From UHGV virus genome UHGV-2031204: a stretch of 64,000 nt of DNA. One strand, 5' to 3'. This document shows positions 1-25,455 of this stretch, piece by piece. The translations under genes and the position numbers were made by a program. Under the pieces are notes generated by a model that worked only from the letters and a program-made list of their open reading frames with translations, did no database searches and was not told where the DNA came from. This DNA comes from a virus. The stretch's first letter is position 1, and every line of letters starts with the position of its first letter.

Positions 1-1
1 G

Positions 2-67
2 GATCATGAAAGCGCGGAATTGGACATCACTCTCACGTTAGAAGATGATGGATTAAAACCAGTATAA
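2..67 (+). CDS. 3' end of an upstream ORF running off the window start (function unknown)
   Basis: Open frame from position 2 to TAA at 65-67 (…DITLTLEDDGLKPV*). Confidence 0.3.
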   Translation, partial: DHESAELDITLTLEDDGLKPV

Positions 68-89
68 TAGTCCGCTTATAAAAAATATT

Positions 90-118
90 GGGGGGGGGGT
101 AAAGCACCTCCCCAGATC
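90..118 (+). terminator. G10 tract plus CCTCCCC stem element after upstream ORF (weak terminator or RNA structure)
   Basis: GGGGGGGGGG-TAAAGCACCTCCCC; near-identical element at 21370-21394. Confidence 0.35.
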
Positions 119-147
119 TTTTAGCTCCCGATAGAGAATTAAATATC

Positions 148-3100
148 ATGGCTAAAGCGGTAAAGAAAATTCGTTTACACGATTTACGTCCATACACCGG
201 GGATATAGGTGAAGGCGTTTTACTTTTTTCGAAAGACGAAAAAGATTATAAGTTACCCGTCCGCGAAATTGTTGCGGATATTGACACTGTCAGAAACGCA
301 GTTGCTGATGCACAAACAGCTGCAGCCAAATCGCAACAGTCTGCAACAGAAGCTACGCAAGCAAAAAATTTAGCAGAAACCGCGAAGCAACAAACTGACA
401 CGTTAGCTTCTACAGTTAGTGAGCAAGCGGGAACCGTTGCCACTAAAACTGCTGAGGTTAACAAAAAACACGCTGAAGTGTTGGCAGCGAAAACTGCCGT
501 AGATACTGTTTCACAATCAGTAAATGAGAAGGCTCAAGCTGTCGCTACAAGCGAACAATCGGTGACGGCTACAGCGGCTGATGTAACTAAGAAAGCAGAA
601 ACGGTTACGCAACAGGCCGGGCAAGTTCAACAAACCGCTACCAGTATCGCAGATACCGCAGCTTCAGTTGAGGCCAGTAAAGGTGCAGTGGAGAAGATTG
701 CTGCACAGGTCACGAAAGATAAGGAAAGTTCAGAAGGTGCAGCAACACGATCGGAATCAGCCGCTTTGCGTGCGGAGAAAATCGCTGCACAGGGTTTAGT
801 TGACGCTAGTACGACCGGTAAAGGTATCGTTAAACTTAACAATACCCTGACTAGCGAATCCGTGACTGAGGCTGCCACACCATCCACGGTTAAACAGCTG
901 AATGACGAATTACAGTTAAAAGCCAATAAACATTCGCCGAATTTTACGGGTAAACCGTCATCCCCAACACCCCCGAAGGACTCGAACGACACGAGCATCT
1001 CCACAACGGCCTGGGTGCGTGACGCGATTGCAGAACTGGTTGGTTCTTCACCCGAGACGTTAAACACCTTAGCGGAATTAGCTGAGGCGTTAGGTAATGA
1101 CCCTAACTTCGCAACAACGATTACTGAGGAACTTGCGCAGAAACAACCTCTCAGTCCGTTACTCACCGCTATTGCCGCAGTCACCACAGCGGCAAACAAA
1201 CTCATGTATTTCACCGGCAGTAATAAAGTCGGATTAACGGATTTTACAGAAACGGCCAGATCCTTGTTAGCGAAAGGGTCAACTGCGGATATCATCAATT
1301 TCTTGGGATTAAGAGCCACCGTAGATAAAGCGAATGGTGCGTTACAGAAGAACTCTAACGGCGCTGATATCCCAGATAAAGAAACGTTTGCTCGCAACAT
1401 CGGTCTATCTCCTGACACCTATCTGCGTTTCCGTGGCGAAATGCCTGTAGATGCTGATATTAACACATTTGCTCCAGATGCTAATTACACAGGAACGTGG
1501 GCTAAGTCGACATCAACCAATGCGTCGATGGCAAAACACTTCCCAGAAGACGGCGCAGTCGGTTATCTGGAAGTGTATAAAGCGGGCAACTACAGCGGCG
1601 CGCAACGTTTTACCTGTCGTAATGGTAACGTGTACAACCGTATGTTGTCAGGTGCGTGGAACGGAACTAATGGACCCTGGTCACCGTGGAGAATGGTAAC
1701 TACTGGTGTTCGTCCACTGTCTACCGCTATAGACTTGAACTCTCTGGGTGGCGCTGAGCATATGGGTAACTGGCGGAACTCGTCCAGTTCGTTAGCGGTG
1801 TTCGACCGACATTACCCCGAAGAAGGCGGTGGTGCGCAAGGCGTACTAGAAGTAATGGAAGGTGGTCTTTACGGACGGTTGCAGCGATACACTACGCGTC
1901 GTGGTACAATGTATGTCCGTGGTTTGACTGCAACGTGGGATTCATCAAACCCGCAATGGGAAGATTGGATTCAGGTTGGTTATCAGACTGACGGTGCTTT
2001 CTTTAAAGCCAATTTTAACGATCTCGTTAAACCAGGACGTTTCAGTGTCACTGGTGAAGCAACTAATGGTCCACTTACCGGTTCTTCTGGTGAAACCATA
2101 TTAGGCGTTTGTGAAGTTACCTTACGCTTAGACGGTACAGGGGTCGAACAGAATTATACTACATACGGTACGGGTGTAGAAACTAAAGGTCGTAAATTCC
2201 AACGTATCCGTACGGGTAACGCTTGGAGTGATTGGCGTGAGATTTTCACATCGTATTCGCTTCCGTTAGTATTAGGGGTTGGCGGTGAGCGTGCGAATGT
2301 TGATCCTTTAGACTGGCAAACCTATGACTTTAAACCAGGTGAGTTAATCTGTACGCCACTTAACACCATGAAAAACATTCCTGCGGGAATGGATTGGGGT
2401 GTTATTGACGGTAACTTAATTAGCATCCTGGTTGGACCATCAGATGGTGCATCCTCGGGTCGGAGCATGTTGGTTTGGCGTAGTACGGTGTCTACTGCCA
2501 ACTATCGATTCTTTGCCGTTCGCCTTGCAGGTAATCCGGGTAATCGTACTATTACTCCTCGACAGATGCCTGTATTGACCGCAGCACACACCTGGGCAGA
2601 AAAACAGACCTTTGCAAAAGGGTTAGCAGGTGAGTTAACAGGCAACGCTTCAACCGCCACTAAATTAAAGACGGCGCGTAGAATTGGTGGGGTCGCCTTC
2701 GATGGTAGCGGCGACGTTAACCTCCCAGGTGTTAACCAACAAGGTAATCAAAACACCACGGGTAACGCCGGTACAGCCACTAAACTTCAAACCGCTAGAA
2801 ATATTAACGGTGTGAGGTTCGATGGTTCTGCTGACATCAATATCAACACCTTGGTGGGTCGTGGTCGGGTTACCGCACTAACCGGTTCAAACAAAGGTAC
2901 GCCTGGTATTCAGATGTACGAAGTTTACAATAACGGCTATCCGTACGCTTATGGTAACTTACTCCATTTGGGTGGTGCTGCTGCGCTAGGCGAAGGCGAG
3001 TTGTTAATTGGTTGGTCGGGCACGAGTGGTGCGCACGCGCCAGTTTATATTCGTAGTCGACGTGATACGGCAGATGCGCCGTGGTCAGATTGGGCACAAG

Positions 3101-4770
3101 TTTATACTACACGTGACAGTATCCCTGGCGTAAATACCACAGGTAATCAGGACACTACTGGCAATGCCGCTACCGCGACGAAACTGAAAACCGCTCGCAG
3201 AATCGGCGGCGTTACCTTTGACGGTACTGGGGATATCAATTTACCGGGGGTTAACCAAGCCGGTAACCAGAATACGTCAGGTAATGCTGCAACAGCGACT
3301 AAACTCCAAACTGCTCGAAGTATCGGTGGTGTGGCTTTTGATGGTACTAAAGACATCAGTTTACCTGGGGTAAACCAAACTGGGAATCAGTCAACTACGG
3401 GGAACGCGGCCACTGCAACGAAGTTGCAGACAGCGCGTACCATTAATGGTATTGCTTTCGATGGCACGAAAAATATTGAACTGACCCCAAGAGCCATAGG
3501 CACGATTAACTCAACAACCATGTCTTTTAATGGTGGTGCCGGATGGTTCAAGCTGGCAACTGTAACTATGCCACAAGCCAGTTCCGTGGTTTACATAAGC
3601 ATGATTGGTGGCGCAGGGTTTAACGTTGGCTCCCCGCAGCAAGCTGGCATTTCTGAGCTGGTACTGCGTGCTGGAAATGGTAACCCAAAAGGTATTACTG
3701 GCGCATTATGGCGACGGACATCGGTTGGATTTACTAATTTTGCATGGGTGAATACATCTGGTGACACCTATGACATTTATGTAGAAATAGGTAATTACGC
3801 CACAGGGGTTAATATTCAGTGGGATTACACCAGTAATGCAAACGTAACAATCCACACAACACCAACTTATACAGCAGATAAACCAGCTGGCCTGACTGAT
3901 GGAACGGTATATGTCGTTTACAGTTCACACATTAAACCTACGGCGGGTGATGTTGGGGCGTTGCCATTATCCGGCGGCCAATTGAATGGAGCTTTGGGTA
4001 TTGGAACCGCCAATGCTTTAGGTGGGAACTCCATAGTTTTAGGGGATAATGACACCGGCCTTAAGCAGAACGGGGATGGCGTTCTAGATGTTTACGCCAA
4101 TAATGCTCACGTTTTACGCTTTACGAGTGGGGCTGTTCAAAGCAATAAACCTCTCAACGTTACTGGGGATATAAGAACCAATACTTGGGTTTATGCAAAT
4201 AGATATTCTATTAACAGCAACTCAGGTTCTTGGATTAGCATGAGAGACCATAACGTTATTTTTGGTCTTAATGCGGTAGGAACTAGTTCTGCTCAGGCAT
4301 TGTTAAGACAAGACCATGCTGATAGGAAATATTTTGTTGGTGGTTTAGGTAACAGTCAATTCGGCTTTTACATGATAAACAACTCACGTACTGATAATGG
4401 CACCGATGCCAATGCTTATTTGCAAAATGACGGTACTTGGGTTTGTGGTGGGAACGGTAACTTTAACGACGTTTATATACGTTCAGACGCCCGGCTGAAA
4501 AGTAATTTCTCTCCAATAACTAATGCATTGGAGAAGGTAAAGGAATTGTCAGGTTTAATATACGACAAAAAGGAGAACTTTAAATCCACTAATGTTCATC
4601 GTGAGGCTGGTGTTGTAGCGCAGACCTTACAAAAAGTGTTACCTGAGGCAGTTTCTACTTATAAAGACGCTAATGGTGAGGACGTTTTGACGGTCTCTAA
4701 TTCTGCTCAAATAGCTTTACTTATTGAGGCAATAAAGGAGTTGGCGGAGATAATTGAGACCAAGTTATAA
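148..4770 (+). CDS. Long tail fibre protein (distal-subunit-like) with tandem fibre repeats and C-terminal S74 intramolecular chaperone
   Basis: 1540 aa; Ala/Thr/Gln-rich N-terminal shaft; five tandem ~35-aa repeats TGNAATATKLxTAR.I.G..FDG..DI.L; C-terminal SDARLKSN…NALEKV…ALLIEAIKEL matches the S74 autoproteolytic chaperone signature. Confidence 0.85.
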   Translation: MAKAVKKIRLHDLRPYTGDIGEGVLLFSKDEKDYKLPVREIVADIDTVRNAVADAQTAAAKSQQSATEATQAKNLAETAKQQTDTLASTVSEQAGTVATKTAEVNKKHAEVLAAKTAVDTVSQSVNEKAQAVATSEQSVTATAADVTKKAETVTQQAGQVQQTATSIADTAASVEASKGAVEKIAAQVTKDKESSEGAATRSESAALRAEKIAAQGLVDASTTGKGIVKLNNTLTSESVTEAATPSTVKQLNDELQLKANKHSPNFTGKPSSPTPPKDSNDTSISTTAWVRDAIAELVGSSPETLNTLAELAEALGNDPNFATTITEELAQKQPLSPLLTAIAAVTTAANKLMYFTGSNKVGLTDFTETARSLLAKGSTADIINFLGLRATVDKANGALQKNSNGADIPDKETFARNIGLSPDTYLRFRGEMPVDADINTFAPDANYTGTWAKSTSTNASMAKHFPEDGAVGYLEVYKAGNYSGAQRFTCRNGNVYNRMLSGAWNGTNGPWSPWRMVTTGVRPLSTAIDLNSLGGAEHMGNWRNSSSSLAVFDRHYPEEGGGAQGVLEVMEGGLYGRLQRYTTRRGTMYVRGLTATWDSSNPQWEDWIQVGYQTDGAFFKANFNDLVKPGRFSVTGEATNGPLTGSSGETILGVCEVTLRLDGTGVEQNYTTYGTGVETKGRKFQRIRTGNAWSDWREIFTSYSLPLVLGVGGERANVDPLDWQTYDFKPGELICTPLNTMKNIPAGMDWGVIDGNLISILVGPSDGASSGRSMLVWRSTVSTANYRFFAVRLAGNPGNRTITPRQMPVLTAAHTWAEKQTFAKGLAGELTGNASTATKLKTARRIGGVAFDGSGDVNLPGVNQQGNQNTTGNAGTATKLQTARNINGVRFDGSADININTLVGRGRVTALTGSNKGTPGIQMYEVYNNGYPYAYGNLLHLGGAAALGEGELLIGWSGTSGAHAPVYIRSRRDTADAPWSDWAQVYTTRDSIPGVNTTGNQDTTGNAATATKLKTARRIGGVTFDGTGDINLPGVNQAGNQNTSGNAATATKLQTARSIGGVAFDGTKDISLPGVNQTGNQSTTGNAATATKLQTARTINGIAFDGTKNIELTPRAIGTINSTTMSFNGGAGWFKLATVTMPQASSVVYISMIGGAGFNVGSPQQAGISELVLRAGNGNPKGITGALWRRTSVGFTNFAWVNTSGDTYDIYVEIGNYATGVNIQWDYTSNANVTIHTTPTYTADKPAGLTDGTVYVVYSSHIKPTAGDVGALPLSGGQLNGALGIGTANALGGNSIVLGDNDTGLKQNGDGVLDVYANNAHVLRFTSGAVQSNKPLNVTGDIRTNTWVYANRYSINSNSGSWISMRDHNVIFGLNAVGTSSAQALLRQDHADRKYFVGGLGNSQFGFYMINNSRTDNGTDANAYLQNDGTWVCGGNGNFNDVYIRSDARLKSNFSPITNALEKVKELSGLIYDKKENFKSTNVHREAGVVAQTLQKVLPEAVSTYKDANGEDVLTVSNSAQIALLIEAIKELAEIIETKL

Positions 4771-4774
4771 TTAT

Positions 4775-4796
4775 CAGTGAGGGGTTCCCCTCACTG
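4775..4796 (+). terminator. Stem-loop after fibre gene (CAGTGAGGGG-TTCC-CCTCACTG), no T-run
   Basis: Perfect 9-bp inverted repeat immediately 3' of the stop; weak or attenuating. Confidence 0.3.
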
Positions 4797-4825
4797 ACTC
4801 ACAAGTACGTTATAAGGTGGTTATT

Positions 4826-5608
4826 TTGTCTGTATCAGCGACTCCCGGATGGATTGGTTCTTCAGCAAAAGCTGAAGCTGGTAATGGTTGGATGTCTGGC
4901 GCGATGCGCACACTTGGTGTGCCGGTCCCAGGCTGGATGTCGCAATTGGCGGGAAAATCAAAAGAGGCTCAGTATTCGATCGGGGCTAATCACAATTACA
5001 ATAAAGATACGCTTATTAACTATTTACGTTCCATAGGCTCTACTGCTGTCGTTGTGACCATTACAGGGGATTTAGTGTCTTATAGTAGCGGGGTTCCTTG
5101 TTTAGAGTTCCCTAGCAATCTTCCAAATTCGTATATTACCCTCATCATCAATCCTGGGGTTACAGTATACGGCAGAGGAGGCAACGGCGGTTCTAACTCA
5201 CCAGGCGGTGCAGGTGGAACCGCAATACAGAACGGAATAGGAAACAGACTGCGTATAACCAACCGTGGCGCTATTGCCGGAGGCGGTGGCGGCGGTGGCG
5301 GCGGTAACAGGGGTAGACTAATATTTGGTGGTGGCGGTGGTCGCCCATTCGGTGCTGGTGGGTCTTCCTCTCATATGAGTTCCGGTGCGGCTGCTGGTAC
5401 TATTTCCGCTCCTGGTAGAGGATCTGTTGGTGAGGGGTCTCTTAGTGCATATACAGGCGGTTCGGGTGGTAATGTCGGTGCTGGTGGAGGAAGATGTAAT
5501 ACTCATGGTAACGGTACAGAATATAACGGCGGGGCAGCTGGTGCTGCTGTTACTGGTAATGCGCCAAGATGGGACGCAGTAGGTGCAATATACGGTTCAC
5601 GTGTTTAA
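4826..5608 (+). CDS. T2-type gp38-like tail-fibre tip adhesin with polyglycine motifs
   Basis: GWIGSSAKAEAGNGWMS…GANHNYNKDTLINYLR…ITITGDLVSYS…CLEFPS…GGTAIQNGIGNRLRITNRGAIAGGGGGGGGG…GGGGGRPFGAGG resembles T2/T6-type gp38 (recalled, not searched). Start taken at TTG 4826 (RBS AAGGTGG 5 nt upstream); track start GTG 4817 is possible. Confidence 0.8.
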   Translation: MSVSATPGWIGSSAKAEAGNGWMSGAMRTLGVPVPGWMSQLAGKSKEAQYSIGANHNYNKDTLINYLRSIGSTAVVVTITGDLVSYSSGVPCLEFPSNLPNSYITLIINPGVTVYGRGGNGGSNSPGGAGGTAIQNGIGNRLRITNRGAIAGGGGGGGGGNRGRLIFGGGGGRPFGAGGSSSHMSSGAAAGTISAPGRGSVGEGSLSAYTGGSGGNVGAGGGRCNTHGNGTEYNGGAAGAAVTGNAPRWDAVGAIYGSRV

Positions 5609-5625
5609 TTAAAAAAGGAGGGTAG

Positions 5626-6129
5626 ATGGGGGTAGCGTCAGGATGGGTCGGATCTTCAGCTAGGAATGAAACTGGCCAACAATGGATGAGCGCTGCGGGT
5701 AGTAAATTAGGATTGGGTAGACCTTTTATGATGAGTCAAATGGTGGGACGATCTATGGGCTGTAAAATTGCAACCGCTGCATATAGCGATTCTTTAGGTA
5801 AGAAATGGGGCGCAGTAGGACCAAGCTGGCCGTTAAACCAGAAAAATCAGGGAACCATTCAAAACGCGGGTAACTGCGGGGTGGGAACTTTAGTAGGTAT
5901 TGAGTTACAGTTAACAACGATAGTTGCCAACGCAAAGCCTACTTTAGCGGTTTACTTACAAGGAGGCAGAGCCTCTAACATTACCGTAAATTTAGGTGGT
6001 AACACCTGCGCGCTGACCTATCAGCAGGTTATTAACGGACAGCATTATTACTGGACTAATAACATCAGCGCTGCGTTCCAAAACGTGATGAAATCAACCG
6101 GTACACTGAGAGATTTCAAAATTAGTTAA
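5626..6129 (+). CDS. gp38-like paralog: same N-terminal domain, unrelated non-glycine-rich C-terminal domain
   Basis: MGVASGWVGSSARNETGQQWMSAAG aligns with the N-terminus of 4826..5608; strong RBS AAGGAGGG; C-terminal 100 aa lack polyglycine tracts. Confidence 0.65.
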   Translation: MGVASGWVGSSARNETGQQWMSAAGSKLGLGRPFMMSQMVGRSMGCKIATAAYSDSLGKKWGAVGPSWPLNQKNQGTIQNAGNCGVGTLVGIELQLTTIVANAKPTLAVYLQGGRASNITVNLGGNTCALTYQQVINGQHYYWTNNISAAFQNVMKSTGTLRDFKIS

Positions 6130-6216
6130 TTATTTTTCAAGTGGAAGCGCTTGAAATCGTAATCGGGGGGATGTTTTAAAAGACTTTCTACGTCCCCCTA
6201 AACTTAAAGGTGTGTT

Positions 6217-8151
6217 ATGATGTTGGTGCGCGATATTAAAGATTACACCGAACTAGCAACATACGCGTTAAATTCGTTGTTAACGCTTGACAAACCAGAA
6301 ATACTCGATGAATCCGTCACGATAACGGTAGACCAGGAAACGAACTATGATTACGTTGGTCAAGTTACTGGTCGTGTTTCTGTAGCTAGTCCCACTGAAT
6401 ATAAAATTGCGATGTATACCTATACAACGGGAGAGTACGCGCAAGGTGAATCAGCATTAAACGAATCGGGTGAGTTTAATTTTAAACGAACATGGCCGGG
6501 GACAAAACAATTTCGTTTAATTAGAATTGCTGATGGCAAATGGATTTCTACGTTAGAGTTCCCATTGTGCATCCGTAGTTACCATATGCCAGAAAACGCG
6601 GACCCTGAAACGATCAGGATTATGAAAGATCGGTGTTATACTTACGATCAGGCTGTTGCTGCTCTTGCATTAATGGTATACGGTCATGAAAAGGTAGAAC
6701 AGTTTGTAAAAGGTCTTTTAGCGCTGGTCAATGAAGACGGGGGCGTTAAATTCTACGTAAACCGACTTTCAGCTAAATCTTCGCGAAATTATTACCGTAT
6801 GGGTAACGTCGCGTGGGTACTTTACGCTTTAGCTTTTTATCTTGAAAAATTTCCTGCCGGAAATCTAGCGGCACAGGTTCGTGAAAAATTAACACTTTCC
6901 TTAACCTGGCTGGAAACTTACAAGGTAACGCAGGAGACAGATCGCCGCAAAGGTTTATATCTTGGTGGAAAGGGTCGTTTTGTTACTACCGAATCAGGCG
7001 AACGTGTTTTTGAAGAAGACTACGTTGCACCTTTTGCGGCTTTAGAACATCAGGTAGATATTTGGTTCCTGTTCGAATTACTAGGGCGCGTCGGTTTTGA
7101 TGCATACCAACAAAAAGCAGCGGACTTCGGTAATAGAATAGTAGAAGCTTTTTGGATGGAAGACGAAGGACGTTTTCGTCAGGGTGTGAGAGAAACAGAA
7201 GATGATAACGCAGCTGCGTTAGATCAGTCCAGTTGGGGTGGGCTATTTGCGGCCAAATTTAAACCAGAGTACGCCGAACGTTGTCACGCTTTTATGGAGA
7301 AATTTCGTTCGGAAACCTCTGAGTGTCGTGGCTACACACCATACAAAACCGAGTTTGGTTACCCTAATGCTAAAGAAGGGGTGTGGGTTGAAGGTGCCGC
7401 CGGTGTTGCATTATTCGAACGTCAGTTAGGAAATGATAAACGTGCTGTTGAGATCATTAACGACTTAGATGTTCTTTTATCAGAATACGGTTATCGTGAT
7501 TCTTGCGATGATCCTACCTATGATACGCTGCCGCCGTGGTGGTCAACCACAAACACTGCATGGGTGCTTTTAGTCTGTAAGCCAAGTAATTTTTGGCTTG
7601 TAGATAAGTCTCCTTTAACGGAGAGATATAATCCGCAGAATAAATTTTTACCAGATATTTCATTAAACTCTTTAAATCTTGTAATTTCGTTAGTGAATCA
7701 CGATTTAAAAACAGATTACACGGAGTCTGATGTTGAAATCAGCAAGATTTCACTTAGCACGGAAGAAAATCGTGACACAACAGCGATAATGGAAATAAAA
7801 CGTCCTAATAAACGGTCGTTACAGATCTATTACAACCGTTTAACCGCAGCGCGGTGGTTAAACCAGCAACCTATTCTGGTAAAGGTCACCGGTAATGGTT
7901 TTACTACTCGCGATCTGATCGACGGAATTAACGCTGTCTGTGGTAGTAATTTACAAGCCGACGATCTTACCGATAAAACATTTACCGTAGGGAGGGACGC
8001 TGTAACATTACAAGTTTCACCCAACTCGCTAGGTTATAAAGGCCAATTCTCCGTTCTGGTTTTCGGTAACGACGAAGAAGCCGCTGTAGTAAAAGACAAC
8101 GATTTAATCGTTACTGCAGATAACCGTGTCTTAACATTCGGAGGTCACTAA
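6217..8151 (+). CDS. Hypothetical 644-aa protein, possible (alpha/alpha)6-toroid glycosidase-like fold
   Basis: RBS AAAGGTG; recurring aromatic helix-end motifs (NVAWVLYALAFY, VDIWFLFELL, SSWGGLFAA, GVWVEGAAGVALF, TNTAWVLLV). Fold assignment is inference. Confidence 0.55.
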   Translation: MMLVRDIKDYTELATYALNSLLTLDKPEILDESVTITVDQETNYDYVGQVTGRVSVASPTEYKIAMYTYTTGEYAQGESALNESGEFNFKRTWPGTKQFRLIRIADGKWISTLEFPLCIRSYHMPENADPETIRIMKDRCYTYDQAVAALALMVYGHEKVEQFVKGLLALVNEDGGVKFYVNRLSAKSSRNYYRMGNVAWVLYALAFYLEKFPAGNLAAQVREKLTLSLTWLETYKVTQETDRRKGLYLGGKGRFVTTESGERVFEEDYVAPFAALEHQVDIWFLFELLGRVGFDAYQQKAADFGNRIVEAFWMEDEGRFRQGVRETEDDNAAALDQSSWGGLFAAKFKPEYAERCHAFMEKFRSETSECRGYTPYKTEFGYPNAKEGVWVEGAAGVALFERQLGNDKRAVEIINDLDVLLSEYGYRDSCDDPTYDTLPPWWSTTNTAWVLLVCKPSNFWLVDKSPLTERYNPQNKFLPDISLNSLNLVISLVNHDLKTDYTESDVEISKISLSTEENRDTTAIMEIKRPNKRSLQIYYNRLTAARWLNQQPILVKVTGNGFTTRDLIDGINAVCGSNLQADDLTDKTFTVGRDAVTLQVSPNSLGYKGQFSVLVFGNDEEAAVVKDNDLIVTADNRVLTFGGH

Positions 8152-8771
8152 TGGCTGAACTGGTAGGAAAGGTACGCGTTCACGAACTACCGACACTTTC
8201 AGATGACGTCACAGGTGTAGTCGTCTTAGCGTCTAAAGAACAAACTGAATACCAACTCCCGATTGAGAACTTAGGGGGTGGTGAGGTTACAGTGAGTCCG
8301 TCGGCGAATAACATCCTTAAGTCTAACAGTGATGGGTTGTTTGTTAATGGTGCACATCCGATTGTACCAAAAATGGATGCAAAAACCGTATCGGGAAATA
8401 TGGTAGTAGAAAAAACGTTGACGGGTGGTGCGGTAATCTGCAAAACAACGGTTGACGTTAATAACAGGCTGGGTGTTACGCAATTATCAGGGGTATCAAT
8501 TTATAGCCAGTGTCTGTTGGAAAATAAATTGGTTTACCTGGCAGCAGATGGTGGTATTATTGATGCGTACTTCTACGTTAGTGGTACAAAAACCACAGCG
8601 AGTACAATAACCCACACCATTCGTGTTGTTTTAGCGAAGATACCCTCTAAAGTTATCGATATCACCGATTTGTCTGAAACCGAAGTACAATACGAGAATA
8701 GTAATTTACCTGTTAAGATCGTTATTAAACATCTTGCAGGGACAACACTTTCTCAGAACGGAATGAAATAA
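8151..8771 (+). CDS. Short fibre-like protein sharing the N-terminal anchor domain of the 1540-aa fibre
   Basis: MAELVGKVRVHELPTLSDDVTGVVVLASKEQTEYQLPI aligns with MAKAVKKIRLHDLRPYTGDIGEGVLLFSKDEKDYKLPV of ORF 148..4770; ATG overlaps the upstream stop, RBS GGAGGT. Confidence 0.6.
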   Translation: MAELVGKVRVHELPTLSDDVTGVVVLASKEQTEYQLPIENLGGGEVTVSPSANNILKSNSDGLFVNGAHPIVPKMDAKTVSGNMVVEKTLTGGAVICKTTVDVNNRLGVTQLSGVSIYSQCLLENKLVYLAADGGIIDAYFYVSGTKTTASTITHTIRVVLAKIPSKVIDITDLSETEVQYENSNLPVKIVIKHLAGTTLSQNGMK

Positions 8772-8777
8772 TTTTTA

Positions 8778-8818
8778 GGTAGTAGGGGCTTAGCCCCTAC
8801 TACCTTTTTTATTTTTTC
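8778..8818 (+). terminator. Rho-independent terminator
   Basis: GGTAGTAGGGG-CTTAG-CCCCTACTACC followed by a T-run. Confidence 0.7.
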
Positions 8819-8863
8819 TCAGATATATATTACCTAGAGGAGAGTGAAATTTACGTTCACTCC
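8816..8863 (+). promoter_or_regulatory. Conserved phage promoter-like motif plus 5'-UTR hairpin (copy 1 of 4)
   Basis: TCAGATATATATTACCTAGAGG followed by hairpin GGAGAGTGAA…TTCACTCC; related copies at 13205, 45418, 49705. Confidence 0.45.
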
Positions 8864-8891
8864 ATTAGTTATAGCCGAAAAGGAGGATTAG

Positions 8892-9743
8892 ATGCATTAC
8901 CCGTATTATCTCCCGCACATTCTAGCAAATAGGGACCCTGGTTATTACTACGAACAAACAGAAGGATCTTTTAATCGACTATACATTCGTGAATTTGATA
9001 CCGATGAAATGACGGATGACCAGTATCTGGAGTATCTAAAAGACCTTTACAGTTTTTCAAAATCGAATAAAGATGGCTTTGGACGTCTCTCAGTCATTAG
9101 CGATGGCGAATATCGTCATTTAGCTAAGCCTGTTACGTACCCTATTATTACGCGAGCTTATACATCGGATAGGCAATATCTTGCTGAACTAAAAATTCCT
9201 CTACGGATAGACGGGCCCCAAATTAGCTGTATGGAAGTAGAAATTCAACCGATTGCTGAAGACTACATCGAAGACTACTTCAAGAAAGCTAAAGACTTAC
9301 TCGACGAGGGTTTAAGTTTCTCTGAAGAAGGCACGATTTGTCTTCTCTCGCTACTCTCGAAGACTTATGTCACGGCAAATTTCCGTGTCTCTGATTCCAG
9401 TAACTACAATACACTTACTCCCTCTAAGACAAAACCGGTTTATTGGGACGATCGGTTAGTCGATAGACACCGTTGGCTTACTATCTTAGATAAAGTAAAA
9501 TTCGAACCCCCTAAACACACCGAAGACAATTTTACTTTATTACACAACTTCGACCCGATCTATATCCCGACGCATTTTGAACAAGCCTTACGTCATCGGT
9601 TGAAATATGTGTTGGAATTACGGTACGGGAAGATAAATGGGCTAACCTGTTCTGGTGAATTGGGAGAAGAAGAACGCGAGAAAATAAAAATCGTGTTTGA
9701 TAAGTTGGTTGAAGATTACATTAAGAAGGAAGGGCAATTATGA
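8892..9743 (+). CDS. Hypothetical protein
   Basis: 283-aa ORF with RBS AAAAGGAGG; no motif recognised. Confidence 0.55.
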   Translation: MHYPYYLPHILANRDPGYYYEQTEGSFNRLYIREFDTDEMTDDQYLEYLKDLYSFSKSNKDGFGRLSVISDGEYRHLAKPVTYPIITRAYTSDRQYLAELKIPLRIDGPQISCMEVEIQPIAEDYIEDYFKKAKDLLDEGLSFSEEGTICLLSLLSKTYVTANFRVSDSSNYNTLTPSKTKPVYWDDRLVDRHRWLTILDKVKFEPPKHTEDNFTLLHNFDPIYIPTHFEQALRHRLKYVLELRYGKINGLTCSGELGEEEREKIKIVFDKLVEDYIKKEGQL

Positions 9744-10183
9744 AACCAAATACTACTAACGGCATTATGCTACTTTGTGATTCTGAAACGTTAGCAAACC
9801 GTATTCGCGGTTTGATGCAAGTACGTTGGCAGCAAAAAGTTCTCGTGGATTACGATGCACCGTTTGTTCACATTACATGGTTGCCAGAAGCTAGTGATTT
9901 CAAAGAACGTATAACCACAAGAAGAATTAAAGAATGGTTATCGGCGATCATTAATAAACAGATTACCGTCATCAATTTCCAGTTGTTCGGTACCGCTGAA
10001 GAACATGAAATCTTAAAACAATGTTTAAGAGCGTTGGCTGTTTCCTTTTCTGTTCGTGGTAGCTGCTATACGGCTTACTTTATCGGTTCACTTGAGCTGT
10101 TTAAGAATACGCTAATGCTTCAGCTAAAAGATGACTACAAACTTTTAGATAAAATCGATTTCGAATTCCCAGGTATGATTTAA
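9740..10183 (+). CDS. Hypothetical protein
   Basis: 147-aa ORF, start overlaps upstream stop (translational coupling). Confidence 0.5.
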   Translation: MKPNTTNGIMLLCDSETLANRIRGLMQVRWQQKVLVDYDAPFVHITWLPEASDFKERITTRRIKEWLSAIINKQITVINFQLFGTAEEHEILKQCLRALAVSFSVRGSCYTAYFIGSLELFKNTLMLQLKDDYKLLDKIDFEFPGMI

Positions 10184-10194
10184 GGAACTATAAC

Positions 10195-11040
10195 ATGTTA
10201 CAGTTCGAACTCACCGAAGAAGAAAAAGTCATCACCAAGTTTAAAATTTCCCCTATCCCTACTGAAGAACAAATTAAGGAAATCGCTGAGCTACAAAAAA
10301 CGTACACTTTTTACTATAAAGTTAAATCGGAAACATTTAACATTTTCTGGGTAGAAGGTGATGTCGATTTTCCTAACAAACTCATTAGTGCGATTACGGA
10401 TATTTTAGTACGGTCTGTTGAGGTGTCTAAAGATCCAGAATTACCAGAACAGTCGACTTGTGGGCTAATGGACAAGCCAACTATGAAAGACACCGCTCGT
10501 TACACAAGCGAGTTTCCACTTACCCCTAAACAAGCAGATAAAATTGAACCAATACTACACCATTTTTTCAGCGATAAATTCACGTATGTGATTGAAGACA
10601 ACGTGCTTAAAGCGAGCTATAAATATACTGGTTATCGTGCTCTTATAGATCAACTATTGAAAGATATAGAGGACGAGAATATTCTGCTATTTACCGTTGA
10701 AAATATCACAGAAGCCGATGCTGATGAGCTTATTATCCGAGCCGTGGATGTTGAAAAAGAACTCGGTGGGTTTATAATTTGTCAAAGCAAGTATTTTAAA
10801 GATAATTTACATCTCCTGATCAGAAACAAACCGCGGTTTCTTAAAGCTTTGAAAACTCATGTGCGGGAAATTAAGAGATGTAATGAATCTTTTAAACACG
10901 TTTTCGAGAAATACGAAAAGGAAGTCAGCGAACGTCTTTCACGCCACCTTTTTGGGGAGTTCGAAAAACACGTTGACAAATACGCCCAGTTGTTTGATAA
11001 GTTTTGTAACGAGATGAGAGAAATTCGAAATCTTAAATAA
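10195..11040 (+). CDS. Hypothetical protein
   Basis: 281-aa ORF in tight co-directional array. Confidence 0.5.
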   Translation: MLQFELTEEEKVITKFKISPIPTEEQIKEIAELQKTYTFYYKVKSETFNIFWVEGDVDFPNKLISAITDILVRSVEVSKDPELPEQSTCGLMDKPTMKDTARYTSEFPLTPKQADKIEPILHHFFSDKFTYVIEDNVLKASYKYTGYRALIDQLLKDIEDENILLFTVENITEADADELIIRAVDVEKELGGFIICQSKYFKDNLHLLIRNKPRFLKALKTHVREIKRCNESFKHVFEKYEKEVSERLSRHLFGEFEKHVDKYAQLFDKFCNEMREIRNLK

Positions 11041-11082
11041 CGAAGGCTTAAACACCACACCATCTACCTAAAGGAGCATTAA

Positions 11083-11598
11083 ATGTCAGTAAATATTAAC
11101 ATGAATCTTTATACTAAACGTGAACGTCAGATTCTGGCGAATCAACCTGGCGTTACTGCCATCGACGGTAAACCTATTGACCGTTTAAAAGTTATCGTTG
11201 CGCGAAATTGCCATGAACGCGATTGGGATATCACCTACTTCCGTTGCTGTTCGGTCGCAAACGCGCTTACCCAACTCTCCAACTATCACCCAGGACCGCT
11301 ATTAAAAGACTGGGTTTGGTTAGTCCCTAAAACTCCCTCAGCAATTGAGTATCCCGCTGGGTTAGTCTATATTCGACCTGTCGCTTACCCAGAACGTCTG
11401 AAAGAGTATCTTGAAGTTATCTGGAACCGCCCTCGTAAAGAGCTGGTGTCGATTATTAATTTACTGCAACAGATCGATATCCCCGGTGTTTTGAATTTGA
11501 AACTCACGTCTCGCGATATTAACCAGGCTTACTGGGAACTGGAGTGGACTGAACCGAAATTCGAAAACACTAACCGTATTTTCTTGCACCGGGGGTAA
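11083..11598 (+). CDS. Hypothetical protein
   Basis: 171-aa ORF, RBS AAAGGAG. Confidence 0.5.
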   Translation: MSVNINMNLYTKRERQILANQPGVTAIDGKPIDRLKVIVARNCHERDWDITYFRCCSVANALTQLSNYHPGPLLKDWVWLVPKTPSAIEYPAGLVYIRPVAYPERLKEYLEVIWNRPRKELVSIINLLQQIDIPGVLNLKLTSRDINQAYWELEWTEPKFENTNRIFLHRG

Positions 11599-11600
11599 AA

Positions 11601-11882
11601 ATGTTAGATTGGTTGTTGGGGTTAATTAACTCACGTCAACAGGAGCTTTATAAAGAAAACACGCGATTACGGCAGGAACTTAGTAACAATCGCCAAACCA
11701 AACGACAATTAATTCGGATGGTAAAACAACAGGCGCGTTGTATACGGGATATCGATTATCAGTATCACCGTCTGAATACCTTAGACCCAACAACAAAAGC
11801 TTTAGGCAGTACGATTGGACATGCACGTAAAGTCAGTCACGATGCGTTAGTTCGATTAGATACAATAGAAGAGAAACTGTGA
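11601..11882 (+). CDS. Hypothetical small coiled-coil protein
   Basis: 93-aa ORF, heptad-like basic/Gln-rich sequence; followed by hairpin CTCTCCCTCGG-GAACG-CCGAGGGAG. Confidence 0.45.
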   Translation: MLDWLLGLINSRQQELYKENTRLRQELSNNRQTKRQLIRMVKQQARCIRDIDYQYHRLNTLDPTTKALGSTIGHARKVSHDALVRLDTIEEKL

Positions 11883-11925
11883 TTAGCTCTCCCTCGGGAA
11901 CGCCGAGGGAGATAAGGTGATTTAC

Positions 11926-12315
11926 ATGATGTGTTTATTTTACTTAAAAAGGCGTTTGTCATTAAAAGCCCAACTGTTTGTTAACGGGAAAGTTAAAAAC
12001 TGGCTGTGTGGTAAAAGAGTACAATATGTCGTTAAAGAAGGCGACTGGTATACGGAGGTTGTGACTTCCCCTAACGGTGAACTTATAAACGTTACTATTC
12101 GTGACGTTATGGTTAAGGTTGGCAGGGGAGGCGGTCGGTTGTTTGAATCGGAAACTATAAGAGTCGCTGCTAAACAATTGAAAGAAGGTCGAGTTATATT
12201 CAACTCTACTGCCCAGAAATACTACGACAATTTATTCGAGTGTCAACGAGCAATGGAGAGAATGACCCGTGAGATGCGAAAAATGCACATCACGGAGATC
12301 ACTATAGGAGTTTAA
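11926..12315 (+). CDS. Hypothetical protein
   Basis: Track ORF 11917..12315; ATG at 11926 sits 6 nt after RBS AAGGTG. Confidence 0.45.
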   Translation: MMCLFYLKRRLSLKAQLFVNGKVKNWLCGKRVQYVVKEGDWYTEVVTSPNGELINVTIRDVMVKVGRGGGRLFESETIRVAAKQLKEGRVIFNSTAQKYYDNLFECQRAMERMTREMRKMHITEITIGV

Positions 12316-16792: not shown

Positions 16793-17641
16793 ATGTCTCT
16801 TACGTCAAAACAGAAACTGCTAAAACTCATCAACACTGAAAACAATATTGTTCCGCCATTGACCTTCAGTGATGTTGATATCGGCGAACCTACTGGTACT
16901 GGGGTTGATACCCAGGTGGTTCTGACTTCTAAACTCAAAGGCGACGAGTCTACTACTTTAACGGTGACTTACCATCGTCGTAATTTGCCCGAATACCTAA
17001 CAGGTGAGTTGGTATTCGGTAACGACGGTGTTGTAACCGCTGCAGATTTGCTTAATGCGATCAACGCAAAATACGATTTAAATATTCTGCCGTCGGATAT
17101 CGTTGATGCGAAAGTTGAAGGTAAAACCCATCAGCTTACCGCTAACGAGAAATCCTACGAGTGGTGTGGCGAAGTAACACTTACGCTACGCGATCCTATT
17201 GATCTGGCTAAACTGTTACCTGTTACTCAATTAGAAAACCTGGTAGAGTATCCGTCCACTAAGAAAGGTAACGCGGCAGTTTATTCTTATCCGATTGATT
17301 TCACCGCAGAAAAAGATTACCTTGATCCTATTACCATTAACGACACCGTCGACCTGGCCGAGTTAGCCACTAAACTGACTAACGTCGTTGATGAGAAATG
17401 GGTAAGTGTACCTAAGAACGCTGCTAATAACCTGTACGGTGCTAAGGTTATCTACGATGGCCCTACCGCAGGTTTCGAAGGTGCAAATACGAAGTACACG
17501 CGTGTGCTGGTACTCACCCTAAGCGGTATGTGTTCTAACCTGACCGGTAAACTGTTAATTCACTTTAACGGAACCGATCGTCCGAAGTCGAAGATTGAAT
17601 TAGCCAAGACTAATTCGGTCTTACCGGGATTCTTAGATTAA
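16793..17641 (+). CDS. Member of a four-paralog family of small proteins, possibly virion-associated
   Basis: 282 aa; N-terminal pattern shared with 17655, 20822, 21430. Confidence 0.55.
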   Translation: MSLTSKQKLLKLINTENNIVPPLTFSDVDIGEPTGTGVDTQVVLTSKLKGDESTTLTVTYHRRNLPEYLTGELVFGNDGVVTAADLLNAINAKYDLNILPSDIVDAKVEGKTHQLTANEKSYEWCGEVTLTLRDPIDLAKLLPVTQLENLVEYPSTKKGNAAVYSYPIDFTAEKDYLDPITINDTVDLAELATKLTNVVDEKWVSVPKNAANNLYGAKVIYDGPTAGFEGANTKYTRVLVLTLSGMCSNLTGKLLIHFNGTDRPKSKIELAKTNSVLPGFLD

Positions 17642-17654
17642 GAGGATTACAGTA

Positions 17655-18152
17655 ATGACCAGTCAAGAAACTATCTTCGACCTTATTAAAAAGGCTAACC
17701 CAGACGCTGAGTTCGACACCGCCAAAGTCACGCTGGGCGATCCGGTTGTGACCACCGGTACTTACAACACCGAAATTACGGTTGCGTCAATTAAGAATCT
17801 CGGTTACACTAACGAACAAACGTTCCAGTATAACCGTATTGACGCAGGTTTATATTTCCTGAACGTATTACCGAAGCTGTTGGTAGAATCTGCAACGACT
17901 ACCGCTGACTTACTGCCCGTCATTAACGAGCAGTACAGCCTAACCCTTACAGAAGACGACGTGTGGGTAGAGCAGGTCGGCGAGTTACCGTTAGACGGTA
18001 GCGCAATCGAACACGGTATTTTCTTCCGCCCTGAATGTTTAACCTGGGTAGGAGGTTTTACGGTGCGCGTTGCACGTAAAACTGCTGAAGATGCTGAACC
18101 TGCGCCAAAAGCAGCTAAAGCACGTACAACTCGTGCACGAAAATCCAAGTAA
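17655..18152 (+). CDS. Paralog-family member with basic Ala/Lys-rich C-terminal tail
   Basis: 165 aa; ends …EPAPKAAKARTTRARKSK. Confidence 0.55.
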   Translation: MTSQETIFDLIKKANPDAEFDTAKVTLGDPVVTTGTYNTEITVASIKNLGYTNEQTFQYNRIDAGLYFLNVLPKLLVESATTTADLLPVINEQYSLTLTEDDVWVEQVGELPLDGSAIEHGIFFRPECLTWVGGFTVRVARKTAEDAEPAPKAAKARTTRARKSK

Positions 18153-18157
18153 GATTT

Positions 18158-18193
18158 GGGTGGGGTAAAACCCACCCAACGTTTTTCTTTTTT
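18158..18193 (+). terminator. Rho-independent terminator
   Basis: GGGTGGGG-TAAAA-CCCCACCC plus T-run. Confidence 0.7.
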
Positions 18194-18216
18194 GTGTAAA
18201 ATGGGGGTTAAACAAA

Positions 18217-18807
18217 ATGGCTGAACGTTGGACTAAAGAAGGTATTATTGAATCCAAAACGGATTTAGAAGGCGGGTACGTCAACGACCCTGACGACTTA
18301 GGTGCAGAAACGAACCACGGTATCACGGTAACGACTGCACGTGAGTATGGTTATAAAGGGAAAATGAAAGACCTTACCCGTGCTCAAGCTTTTGACATTT
18401 ACGATCGTGGTTGGTGGAAGAAACTCAAACTCGATGAGATTTTTGCTATCTCGCCTTTACTGGCTGACCGGATGTTTGATTTCGGAATTAACGCAGGTCG
18501 TGCCAACTGCGTGAAATCGCTCCAGCGTATTCTCAACGTGTTGAACAACGAAGGTAAACTCTACGCGGACATCGATGCTGACGGTGGAATGGGGCCTAAA
18601 ACGCTGGGCGCGTTGAACGCGTATCTGAAATACCGTAAAGATAAAGGGTTAAGCATTTTAATCTTTGCGTTAATCTCGCACCAAGTAACTTACTACACGG
18701 AAATCTCCGAAAAACGTAAGAGAAACGAGAAATACACCTACGGCTGGTACGGCCGCGTGTTCAGAGAAATGGCAGATTATGCGGTGAAAGCGGGGTTAGT
18801 AAAATGA
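18217..18807 (+). CDS. Endolysin-like GH108 glycosidase with C-terminal peptidoglycan-binding region
   Basis: EGGYVNDPDDLGAETNHGIT matches the GH108 N-terminal signature. Confidence 0.8.
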   Translation: MAERWTKEGIIESKTDLEGGYVNDPDDLGAETNHGITVTTAREYGYKGKMKDLTRAQAFDIYDRGWWKKLKLDEIFAISPLLADRMFDFGINAGRANCVKSLQRILNVLNNEGKLYADIDADGGMGPKTLGALNAYLKYRKDKGLSILIFALISHQVTYYTEISEKRKRNEKYTYGWYGRVFREMADYAVKAGLVK

Positions 18808-22694: not shown

Positions 22695-23242
22695 TCATCG
22701 TCTCCTTTAATCAACCCTAATTCGATTAACAGTTCAAAATCGATATGACGGAATCTTGTGTCGAAATCCGATTCCCAATCGATACGGATACCCTGGCATT
22801 CTTCTGGCGTTAGCTCAGGAAAAATCACGGTATTAAATTTCTCTCGCTCATCGTAAAACCCATCAATCGGTGAGTTCGGGTTACGTGTTGCGAAGATAGT
22901 AATGCCGGGGAAGGACAATGCCAACACAGTGATAGATTCTGCGCTGGGTTCGCTTAAAGAGCGGCGTAGAAACGCAATTTTGTGACGTGGGAAATCCAAT
23001 ACCCGTTCTTCAAACCCTGGGTTACGTTTTTCAATTTCCGCGACCGACAGGTCAGTAAGTTCGGTGCAGTACATTGGGATGATTACAGTCACGCCGTGAC
23101 GAATCAGTAAGCGTTTTACGTCATCGGTAAAATCTTCACCGTTAATCACCGCATAGCAACCGAATAGCTTACTGTTTTCCAGAAACTTATCCAGAAGTCG
23201 AATTCTACGCTTCGTAATATTGTTGATCAGAATTGGTTTCAT
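22670..23242 (-). CDS. Hypothetical protein in the radical-SAM operon
   Basis: 190-aa ORF; RBS AAGAGAAG; overlaps the 3' end of the upstream gene. Confidence 0.5.
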   Translation of the reverse strand: MKPILINNITKRRIRLLDKFLENSKLFGCYAVINGEDFTDDVKRLLIRHGVTVIIPMYCTELTDLSVAEIEKRNPGFEERVLDFPRHKIAFLRRSLSEPSAESITVLALSFPGITIFATRNPNSPIDGFYDEREKFNTVIFPELTPEECQGIRIDWESDFDTRFRHIDFELLIELGLIKGDDECLLLVKA

Positions 23243-24527
23243 CTTTGGCTTCTCTTAATAATTTTTCCTTTTGGGCACGTTCACGAACACAGCGTGGGCA
23301 ATAACACATACTCGTGTCGTGGAACGCTTTTGCTGACGTCGTACCCATCTTCTGTTTCCAGTATTCCGCCACCATCAGTTTCGCTGTCGTCCAGCCGCAC
23401 TGGCGTCGTTCAGCGTGATACGCTTTACGGTCTTCTAACGTTCCTTCCCCGTTCTCGTAAGAAGCCGCCGCACAGCTACCACAAGCGTGTTTCATCGGAC
23501 AACCTAAACAGGTTTCTGGGTAGTTGGTATATTGCGTTTGAATCTCTTCTAGCAGCTTACCGTTGTCCAGACTGACGAATTCCCGACCTACCAACTCAAA
23601 CACCGCAGAACGCGACGTTACCGTTGACATAAAGCGGTTACAGCCAAAGATCTTACGGTCAAATCCTAAGCACGTCATGTGCGTTAATGTCCCACAGAAC
23701 GGACGTAAGCGTTCTGGGTTCAACCGTACGGTGTCATTATACAGTAACTGGTCACGCCAGTTCGGTTCCCAAATCGTATCGAAATCCAACCCTTCTGGAA
23801 TGATGTGCGATAAGATATTACGTGGGTTGGTGTGTAATCCTTTCTCAACCCAGTAATCTATCACATCCATCATCTGTAAAGCGATTGACGTCGCCATGCT
23901 ACGTGGCATAACGTCTTCGAAAGTTACGTTTCCAGAAATTGTCCCACCGCCAGTAATGTCAATTAATGACTTCATCCCCGCAGCATAGAACGGCAGCGTT
24001 TCTAACGTAAAGGTTGCTTTTACGCCGAGCTCTGCAATGCCAACCTCTTTTAAGTAGTTATAGCCACGTACTGCGGCTTCGTAAGAACCCTGGCGTGTTG
24101 TTGTGAAGATACGATAACGGTCATGGGATTCAGGTAAGCCATCAATCGAAACCCCAACCGAAAGTTTATCTTTCCAACGTTCTACAATCTCACGGTTCAA
24201 CGGACGATCTAACAGCGTTCCGTTCGTGGAGATACTAAACATAAACGGTCGGTTGTGTTCTTTACACAACTGCTCAGCGGTTTCAAACGCAGCCAGCAGC
24301 AGTTTAGGCTGCATGAACGGTTCGCCACCGATAATGTCGATAATAACTTCAACATTCGGTTCGTTTTTATCGCGTTCAAAACAGGCGTGCAAGAAATCAA
24401 CAATATCTGCCGCTTTGTTGTTACGTGGGTACTTACGTTCGTAACAATATTCGCAGTCCAGGTTACATGAAAGGTTGGTTACGATCTGATACGTTAACTG
24501 CTTAGGGAATTCATTTACTTGACTCAT
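23205..24527 (-). CDS. Radical SAM enzyme with C-terminal SPASM-like Cys cluster
   Basis: CNLDCEYC (CxxxCxxC) near N-terminus; C-terminal cysteines CLGCPMKHACGSC…CGW…CYCPRC. Confidence 0.75.
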   Translation of the reverse strand: MSQVNEFPKQLTYQIVTNLSCNLDCEYCYERKYPRNNKAADIVDFLHACFERDKNEPNVEVIIDIIGGEPFMQPKLLLAAFETAEQLCKEHNRPFMFSISTNGTLLDRPLNREIVERWKDKLSVGVSIDGLPESHDRYRIFTTTRQGSYEAAVRGYNYLKEVGIAELGVKATFTLETLPFYAAGMKSLIDITGGGTISGNVTFEDVMPRSMATSIALQMMDVIDYWVEKGLHTNPRNILSHIIPEGLDFDTIWEPNWRDQLLYNDTVRLNPERLRPFCGTLTHMTCLGFDRKIFGCNRFMSTVTSRSAVFELVGREFVSLDNGKLLEEIQTQYTNYPETCLGCPMKHACGSCAAASYENGEGTLEDRKAYHAERRQCGWTTAKLMVAEYWKQKMGTTSAKAFHDTSMCYCPRCVRERAQKEKLLREAKDETNSDQQYYEA

Positions 24528-25434: not shown

Positions 25435-25455
25435 TGCAGGTGACTCCGGTCGTTT

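Follow-up and report, generated by a model that had tools for sequence, protein, structure and literature searches.

Here, we describe the gene at positions 6217 to 8151 of a 64,000-nucleotide (nt) stretch of the virus genome UHGV-2031204, which is referred to below as "the window." Its product of 644 amino acids (aa) is best explained as a chimeric virion protein of an SPN3US-like jumbo phage (a chimallivirus), in which an enzyme-like (alpha/alpha)6 module is followed by a unit of the DUF7941 family. That two modules are joined here is virtually beyond doubt. As to what the product does, we lean, not strongly, toward a virion-borne, glycan-targeting or glycan-degrading enzyme tethered by its DUF7941 unit. 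An earlier interpretation made from the DNA letters alone (the "sequence-only reading") had suggested a "virion-associated polysaccharide-modifying enzyme," and such a role would fit both the operon context and the fusion to DUF7941. By nucleotide searches, the window groups with the SPN3US-like jumbo phages (Seoulvirus and relatives), with ~73% identity over conserved genes, and its nearest relatives are contigs of ~225 kb, some metagenomic and others from isolate assemblies of Salmonella and Shigella. The parts of the gene are listed here by window position.

6206..6212, + strand: Shine-Dalgarno-like AAAGGTG, 4-6 nt 5' of the ATG, read from the sequence
6217..8151, + strand: coding sequence of the chimeric 644-aa protein, from the ATG at 6217 to the stop codon TAA at 8149-8151 (open reading frame list and translation)
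6304..6576, + strand: N-terminal beta-sandwich sub-domain, residues ~30-120, preceded by a helix at 10-23 (AlphaFold2, strands within 35-114)
6589..7611, + strand: predicted (alpha/alpha)6 barrel, residues ~125-465, with near-invariant residues
7612..7635, + strand: short junction between the modules, residues 466-473 (...SPLTERYNP...), from the alignment with stand-alone orthologues
7636..8076, + strand: DUF7941 (PF25613) N-terminal globular domain, residues 474-620, including a YxR motif (Pfam, family alignment, and a profile match to phiKZ gp127, PDB 9xqd)
8077..8148, + strand: conserved C-terminal tail, residues 621-644 (...KDNDLIVTADNRVLTFGGH; ...DNRVLTFGGH), which aligns with the start of the DUF7941 "linker" of other members
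6150..7768, + strand: segment without a nucleotide counterpart in the relative L002 (blastn), which spans the ribosome-binding site, all of the enzyme-like module, and ~44 codons at the start of the DUF7941 part

The gene itself is real, as the sequence-only reading had assumed. An identical 644-aa protein (P0001) belongs to a 90%-identity cluster of 52 members, and the 15 listed members of that cluster are 643-644 aa long and come from contigs of up to 226 kb. The same protein is encoded by a second genome (L003), in which the fibre gene differs from that of the window and one adhesin gene is absent. Because 15 independent full-length variants and two distinct genomes carry the fusion, we rejected both a chance open reading frame (ORF) and an artefact of assembly or frameshift.

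Two sets of profile matches divide the protein between them. Residues 7-464 are matched by the PHROG "tail fiber protein" families 13714, 7032, and 4128, always through the C-terminal part of the profile and with E values down to 2.7e-181. The sole Pfam match is DUF7941 (PF25613), which covers residues 482-620 on profile positions 5-156 of 276 and scores 52.3 bits against a cut-off of 27. This part of the window protein consists of the N-terminal domain and a tail of ~25 residues, rather than a full module with linker and C-terminal globular domain. Judged from the alignments, residues 474-644 are a complete minimal DUF7941 unit, that is, an N-terminal globular domain with a short linker-like tail, and the same minimal layout is found in gp23 and gp91 of phage Goslar.

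Close relatives carry the C-terminal part on its own. It is 65-84% identical to stand-alone 170-171-aa proteins from ~225 kb contigs. In the relative L002, the gene order is fibre, gp38, Gp38_N, 171-aa DUF7941 gene, and 206-aa gene, and four IMG/VR relatives also have the stand-alone 170-171-aa form in the same slot; because all of these four are unfused (4/4), we take the fusion to be the derived state. When window positions 1-12000 were compared with L002 by blastn, the flanks were 94-96% identical and positions 6150-7768 were unmatched, with 201 bp of L002 in their place. The start of the stand-alone protein, MGQFVPDLSL, aligns with QNKFLPDISL in the window protein (from about residue 474). 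It follows from the unmatched segment and this alignment that the in-frame fusion has put a whole module, lacking any anchor, ahead of a small gene that is otherwise complete. The inserted module has a GC content of 0.43, and of 0.36 at third codon positions, like the neighbouring phage genes; given this composition and a best homologue that is only ~60% identical, recent transfer from the E. coli chromosome was rejected.

Our AlphaFold2 model, built from a 96-row alignment, reaches a predicted local distance difference test score (pLDDT) of ~97 over residues 10-470 (96-98 in the beta-sandwich); the single sequence as input gave a pLDDT of 38 and an unusable model. The model has a helix at 10-23, a seven-stranded beta-sandwich at 35-114, and twelve helices between 130 and 454. 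The beta-sandwich sub-domain is present in close homologues and missing from many distant ones. The twelve helices are predicted to form six hairpins and to close into a barrel, which is the six-hairpin (alpha/alpha)6 glycosidase-type fold, and a Foldseek search with the model returned glycoside hydrolase (GH) families GH78, GH100, GH63, and GH76 together with AGE isomerases. Cellobiose 2-epimerase, mannose isomerase, and YihS are among the best structural matches. Because model and Foldseek agree, the six-hairpin fold that the sequence-only reading had given to the protein stands for residues ~125-465, where we hold it to be almost certain. It does not describe the whole 644 aa as one domain, given the beta-sandwich at ~30-120 and the DUF7941 unit at 474-644.

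The likeness to solved (alpha/alpha)6 enzymes is one of fold. With dextran dextrinase (9ju0, GH15-like), MmpH (7qsj), a GH15-related enzyme (5z3a), cellobiose 2-epimerase (4z4j), the GH76 mannanases, and the GH78 rhamnosidase 4xhc, the module shares 8-14% sequence identity and no relationship at the level of hidden Markov models (HMMs), and their catalytic residues are not equated with those of the module.

An exhaustive profile search recovered 1,940 cluster representatives (clusters at the 50% identity level) at E ≤ 1e-3, with 428 of these at E ≤ 1e-30; on this sequence evidence, the family of the module is large, and neither Pfam nor NCBIfam has a curated model for it. Conservation was computed over 131 members of the family with pairwise identities of <60%. 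Fourteen residues are 97-100% conserved, and the window protein keeps all of them: Y143, D144, G196, G251, E277, H278, D281, L335, D336, W340, W390, E392, G393, and W449. In the model, they sit at the N-terminal ends of alternate helices (142, 195, 276, 335, 391, and 444), and six conserved motifs mark the starts of predicted helices: YDQA (143-146), GNVAW (196-200), EHQVDIW (277-283), LDQSSW (335-340), WVEG (390-393), and TAW (447-449). The sequence-only reading had remarked on recurring aromatic motifs at helix ends, and these six bear it out. Its proposal of a glycosidase-like enzyme also called for conserved catalytic acids, and D144, E277, D281, D336, and E392 are conserved at 97-100% (n = 131) and kept in 15/15 fusion variants. 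From the known topology of the fold, the 14 residues would meet at one end of the barrel, which is the usual catalytic funnel.

The fusion variants tell us something about selection as well. Among the 15, the module is 90-100% identical and the C-domain 86.5-98%, with all 14 key residues kept, and conservation of the module that is at least equal to that of the DUF7941 part argues for purifying selection on a working domain. We treat the module as candidate catalytic, and catalysis as somewhat probable.

Where else the module is used is informative. Its closest homologues are "tail fiber" or "tail" proteins of enterobacterial prophages, 45-60% identical over residues 7-470 (best ~60%), with N-terminal anchors that vary (PF08400, PF12571, PF18668, or PF03406). 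In the lambdoid phage phiSTEC1575-Stx2k, the homologue WCJ00198.1 occupies the side-tail-fibre slot after J and lom. The prophage side tail fibres (PHROG 13714, 7032, and 4128; among them a 608-aa E. coli "prophage tail fiber N-terminal domain-containing protein") share with the window protein a homologous beta-sandwich and (alpha/alpha)6 barrel and all family-invariant residues. They differ in layout: their module lies at the extreme C-terminus and their anchors are N-terminal, whereas the module of the window protein lies at the extreme N-terminus and its attachment domain is C-terminal and comes from a jumbo-phage-specific family.

A terminal position behind an anchor is the usual one, as the module forms the extreme C-terminus in 23/26 IMG/VR viral loci, behind 100-620 residues of anchor or shaft. 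It also occurs in minor tail proteins of Microbacterium phages and in Thermus phage proteins. In P0153 (1050 aa), it is N-terminal to a T4 gp5-like beta-helix spike (Gp5_C / Gp5_trimer_C, PHROG 430), and in P0159 (720 aa) it is N-terminal to another tail-protein domain; from this layout, some phages mount the module on the central puncturing device. Escherichia phage ph0011 (Asteriusvirus; L006 4932-6416) has a stand-alone 494-aa copy, 52% identical, that lies outside any tail cluster, among genes for an RNA ligase and a methyltransferase and small hypothetical genes. Bacterial family members combine the module with Big, PASTA, BACON, Kelch, or Por-secretion domains. Taken from sequence matches, this distribution is the profile of a portable, putatively glycan-active module that has been mounted on virions repeatedly, and, like a tail-fibre or tailspike depolymerase, the module is homologous to the distal domains of other phages' tail fibres.

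Phage depolymerases and receptor-binding proteins with an "alpha/alpha toroid" are already known and are rare, at ~1% (DepoScope, PMC11326577; a Klebsiella prophage survey, PMC12491483). The toroid depolymerases in these two studies are typical tail proteins with an N-terminal anchor and a C-terminal enzyme, and we liken them to the window protein by fold and not by family membership. Our literature search on six-hairpin proteins in phage tails found nothing relevant.

A non-catalytic, lectin-like receptor-binding domain, serving as an extra adhesin for a surface glycan or protein receptor, would explain why the module takes the distal receptor-binding position in prophage side tail fibres and why no curated glycoside hydrolase family was matched; the conserved Trp, Tyr, and acidic residues could serve binding alone. 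We nevertheless consider it unlikely. Five acidic residues and a His are near-totally conserved across members that are <60% identical, which is typical of a catalytic centre, and the members so conserved span Gram-negative, actinobacterial, and Thermus phages as well as secreted bacterial proteins, where a binding site would be expected to vary with its ligand. The nearest structural neighbours, moreover, are enzymes.

If the product is instead a tethered enzyme, as we prefer, the module would bind and probably cleave a host surface polysaccharide such as O-antigen, capsule, enterobacterial common antigen, or colanic acid; we favour binding together with cleavage because the predicted funnel of invariant Asp, Glu, His, Tyr, and Trp is intact. 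The DUF7941 part would tether the enzyme to the periphery of the baseplate or fibre, a role that we take from the model of the phiKZ outer peripheral baseplate and from the filament proposal for Goslar. A profile of the window DUF7941 domain matches chain "0" (PHIKZ127) of PDB 9xqd at E 1e-6, and the structural atlas of phiKZ has this protein, gp127, in the outer peripheral baseplate, where it is modelled in the "star lobe" (PMC13250141). Goslar has ten DUF7941 proteins, with gp23 at ~2,140 and gp22 at ~580 copies per virion. AlphaFold predicts that they dock head to tail, the linker of one protomer on the N-terminal domain of the next; once purified, gp22 assembles into filaments, and in the authors' proposal a "fibre cloud" anchored on the baseplate serves to recognise the host (bioRxiv 10.64898/2026.04.21.720040). 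Because the enzyme is N-terminal to an intact DUF7941 unit, both docking surfaces are kept, and the window protein may be an enzyme-bearing link inside a DUF7941 filament rather than only its cap, so that the filament would not be terminated.

This is a reversal of the order found in other DUF7941 proteins with an effector. Goslar gp86, gp92, and gp161 begin with DUF7941, and carbohydrate-binding, glycoside hydrolase, or leucine-rich repeat domains come after it (bioRxiv 10.64898/2026.04.21.720040). We place DUF7941 at residues 2-277 of gp86, ahead of a TIM barrel, at 1-150 of SPN3US gp145, and at 1-147 of two ~685-aa proteins of Serratia phage Kodama (KODAMA_01370/01380), one of which is annotated as a pectin lyase. 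Like these, the window protein combines a DUF7941 N-terminal domain with a carbohydrate-active or carbohydrate-binding domain among virion genes, and for the Goslar type the proposed role is host recognition from baseplate-anchored filaments. It differs in that the effector comes first (1-465) and DUF7941 second (474-644), and in that the effector is an (alpha/alpha)6 barrel, whereas that of gp86 is a TIM barrel. Please note that "normally N-terminal" rests here on the positions of PHROG and Pfam matches, on four checked proteins, and on the Goslar preprint; a profile search for DUF7941 architectures returned only proteins of ≤313 aa. We also asked if Goslar already carries the same module, and rejected this for gp85-gp88 and gp90-gp93, in which a profile of the module family found nothing; gp161 lay outside this check.

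The minimal DUF7941 unit has plainer counterparts in SPN3US gp122, the stand-alone 170-171-aa proteins (P0098-P0141), and Goslar gp91. These likewise lie beside a tail-fibre cassette, upstream of a gp123-like gene, and they have no N-terminal extension, whereas the window protein has one. In SPN3US, gp138, gp139, gp141, gp143, and gp145 are DUF7941 proteins by Pfam; DUF7941 therefore corresponds to the SPN3US "paralog family B" (Ali et al. 2017, PMC5694885), of which gp122 was suggested to be a possible extra member (PMC5694885). At 177 aa and 31% identity, gp122 is the closest SPN3US homologue of the window C-domain. By mass spectrometry, its neighbours gp123 and gp124 were scored "Tail," and gp138-154 and gp160 "Head" (PMC10052503). 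The DUF7941 proteins among the latter were scored as head because they are present in tailless particles.

Several points weigh against the reading as a tethered enzyme. On the side of the enzyme, module residues 1-478 match nothing in Pfam even at E ≤ 10, NCBIfam has nothing for the window protein, close relatives likewise match no model in either collection, and the curated families GH15, GH63, GH76, GH78, GH100, GH127, and AGE epimerase give no match at threshold; among distant relatives (n = 69), there are sub-threshold matches only, to the GH127 catalytic domain in 4 and to a GH63-like domain in 2. Searches of PDB sequences for a solved relative, by phmmer and by profile, gave chance matches only, and hhalign of the family alignment against E. 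coli YihS returned a probability of 0.12 and no mapping of catalytic residues. The (alpha/alpha)6 fold, furthermore, also houses epimerases, isomerases, lyases, and cyclases. On the side of the tether, the pLDDT is 40-65 for residues 480-644. The window C-domain is a paralogue of gp122 and not its orthologue, because gp122 has a closer counterpart (45% identity) in the 186-aa gene that L002 carries upstream of the fibre, and this gene is the orthologue. In the SPN3US study, low spectral counts led the authors to place gp122 in the class "Non-virion" (PMC10052503). Most SPN3US DUF7941 paralogues of family B were seen in tailless heads (PMC5694885, PMC10052503), which conflicts with the baseplate-filament model for Goslar, itself a preprint proposal based largely on AlphaFold predictions. 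The conflict between the "head" assignments in SPN3US and the "baseplate" assignments in Goslar and phiKZ limits our confidence.

The classification of gp122 would suit a protein made late that stays outside the virion, either an assembly factor that serves the fibre or the gp123-like protein and carries an enzyme, or a soluble depolymerase that clears polysaccharide or receptor-bearing debris. In its favour, the stand-alone module of ph0011 lies among small non-structural genes, and the overlap of stop and start codons with the gp123-like gene resembles the pairing of chaperone and client genes. We think it rather improbable, as gp122 yielded 7, 7, and 8 peptide-spectrum matches in wild-type SPN3US virions, and thus peptides in 3/3 replicates, and 0 in tailless heads (Table S2, PMC10052503). 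Goslar, SPN3US, and phiKZ all have DUF7941 proteins in their virions, and elsewhere the homologous module is built into structural tail proteins. We consider association of the window protein with the virion likely.

A place in or on the head, as for most of SPN3US paralog family B, would have the enzyme internal or ejected, delivered with the capsid or displayed on it. The DUF7941 proteins of gp138-145 do occur at wild-type level in tailless head preparations. The 644-aa gene, however, lies in a fibre operon, tailless heads lack its closest SPN3US homologue, the phiKZ model has gp127 at the periphery of the baseplate, and the module is otherwise a tail-fibre or spike domain, so a head location is quite improbable. 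Least probable of all, to a degree that we would give it little weight, is a barrel that acts as an AGE-like sugar epimerase or isomerase or as a polysaccharide lyase instead of a hydrolase, for which one can cite the cellobiose 2-epimerase, mannose isomerase, and YihS structures among the best matches, Y143 and H278, which could serve a lyase mechanism, and E277-H278-x-x-D281, which recalls the H-x-x-E motif of AGE enzymes.

It is important to separate what would be new from what is not. A glycosidase-like domain on a phage tail protein is unsurprising in itself, and alpha/alpha-toroid depolymerases and DUF7941-effector fusions (described in 2026) are already known. New is the presence in a chimallivirus of a module of prophage side tail fibres, in reversed domain order and from a large family that has no curated model. 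If the tethered-enzyme reading is true, a widespread enzyme family that has no Pfam or NCBIfam entry would be the business end of very common side tail fibres in prophages of E. coli, Salmonella, Citrobacter, and Yersinia, and would therefore be a candidate new carbohydrate-active family and host-range determinant. A receptor-binding or enzyme module would also have moved between lambdoid prophages and nucleus-forming jumbo phages with its domain order inverted, and that inversion would test how flexible the rules of DUF7941 attachment are. The plain 171-aa unit and the 644-aa fusion, in DNA that is otherwise ~95% identical, would form a natural matched pair. With such a pair, one could put to the test the proposal of 2026 that first contact with the host is mediated by DUF7941 filaments, and address the conflict between "head" in SPN3US and "baseplate filament" in Goslar and phiKZ.

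We would go further only tentatively. The module may be the founding phage-borne member of a glycoside hydrolase (or lyase) family that is both new and very large, at ~1,900 clusters, and it may be plugged into at least three virion positions (the tip of side tail fibres, the gp5-like central spike, and DUF7941 filaments); here, it would be a non-terminating link that studs the "fibre cloud" with depolymerase along its length and not at filament ends alone. This is a doubtful extension at present.

The neighbouring genes are given next, together with two further DUF7941 genes of the window.

148..4770, + strand: gene of the long tail fibre (1540 aa), which opens the unit, with Phage_fiber_2 repeats and, at the C-terminus, a Peptidase_S74 chaperone (Pfam, PHROGs)
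4817..5608, + strand: gp38-type adhesin, 263 aa (Pfam GP38, E 6e-69; 77-90% nucleotide identity to gp38 of RB49/JSE-like phages)
5626..6129, + strand: second adhesin-like protein, 167 aa, with a Gp38_N domain only (Pfam Gp38_N, E 2.9e-20)
8151..8771, + strand: gp123-like small tail protein, 206 aa, whose ATG overlaps the stop codon of the 644-aa gene (TAATG), with GGAGG 8 nt upstream
8777..8805, + strand: strong hairpin resembling an intrinsic terminator, with a 13-bp stem and a T run, which closes the fibre operon (terminator scan)
16793..18152, + strand: another pair of DUF7941 paralogues, of 282 aa (Pfam, E 4.5e-54) and 165 aa (Pfam, E 2.9e-28), which correspond by position to Goslar gp22/gp23

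The fibre, gp38, Gp38_N, 644-aa, and 206-aa genes lie on one strand in one terminator-bounded unit. The sequence-only reading had set the gene between adhesin and short-fibre genes. The adhesin genes upstream (4817-5608 and 5626-6129) are as it described; the "short fibre" downstream is plausible, as the 206-aa protein resembles SPN3US gp123, a tail protein by mass spectrometry, in its N-terminal 44 aa (43% identical, E 7e-10).

The cassette at 148-6129 holds two fibre-tip maturation or adhesin systems, with a fibre that ends in a self-cleaving S74 chaperone alongside the T-even-type gp38 adhesin and the Gp38_N protein. In the relative L003, it is the 263-aa gp38 that is missing. DUF7941 genes with only the N-terminal domain flank this swappable fibre cassette in the clade, one of 186 aa upstream (L002 3389-3949) and one of 171 aa (L002 10001-10516) or 644 aa downstream. 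In Goslar (L053 24869-25396), gp91 (175 aa, DUF7941) lies directly upstream of the P1-S-like fibre gp90 and the assembly protein gp89. These arrangements suggest that minimal DUF7941 units and long fibres are functionally linked, and that the link is conserved.

The 282-aa and 165-aa paralogues are candidate filament partners. Together with a 196-aa ORF that follows them, they occupy 16793-18807 (+ strand), and the ORF of L002 that corresponds to the latter is a GH108 endolysin. The order is the same in Goslar (gp22, gp23, endolysin gp24), where gp22 and gp23 are the most abundant DUF7941 proteins of the virion.

Elsewhere in the window, three consecutive giant ORFs (1727, 1401, and 1440 aa; 28814-42630, - strand) are, by size alone, like SPN3US gp168-170, which form paralog family C and are phiKZ gp131-like candidates for baseplate or fibre proteins. 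Three ORFs of 440, 307, and 299 aa at 23205-26355 (- strand) fall in a region that shares ~73% identity with SPFM/SPN3US-like phages, in which the genes are annotated as two radical SAM superfamily proteins. Finally, near-complete genomes of the clade of ~220-226 kb (P0105, P0108, P0113, P0114, P0139, and P0291) are found as contigs in Salmonella enterica and Shigella isolate assemblies, which hints at persistence in a carrier or pseudolysogenic state, or else at contamination of the isolates.

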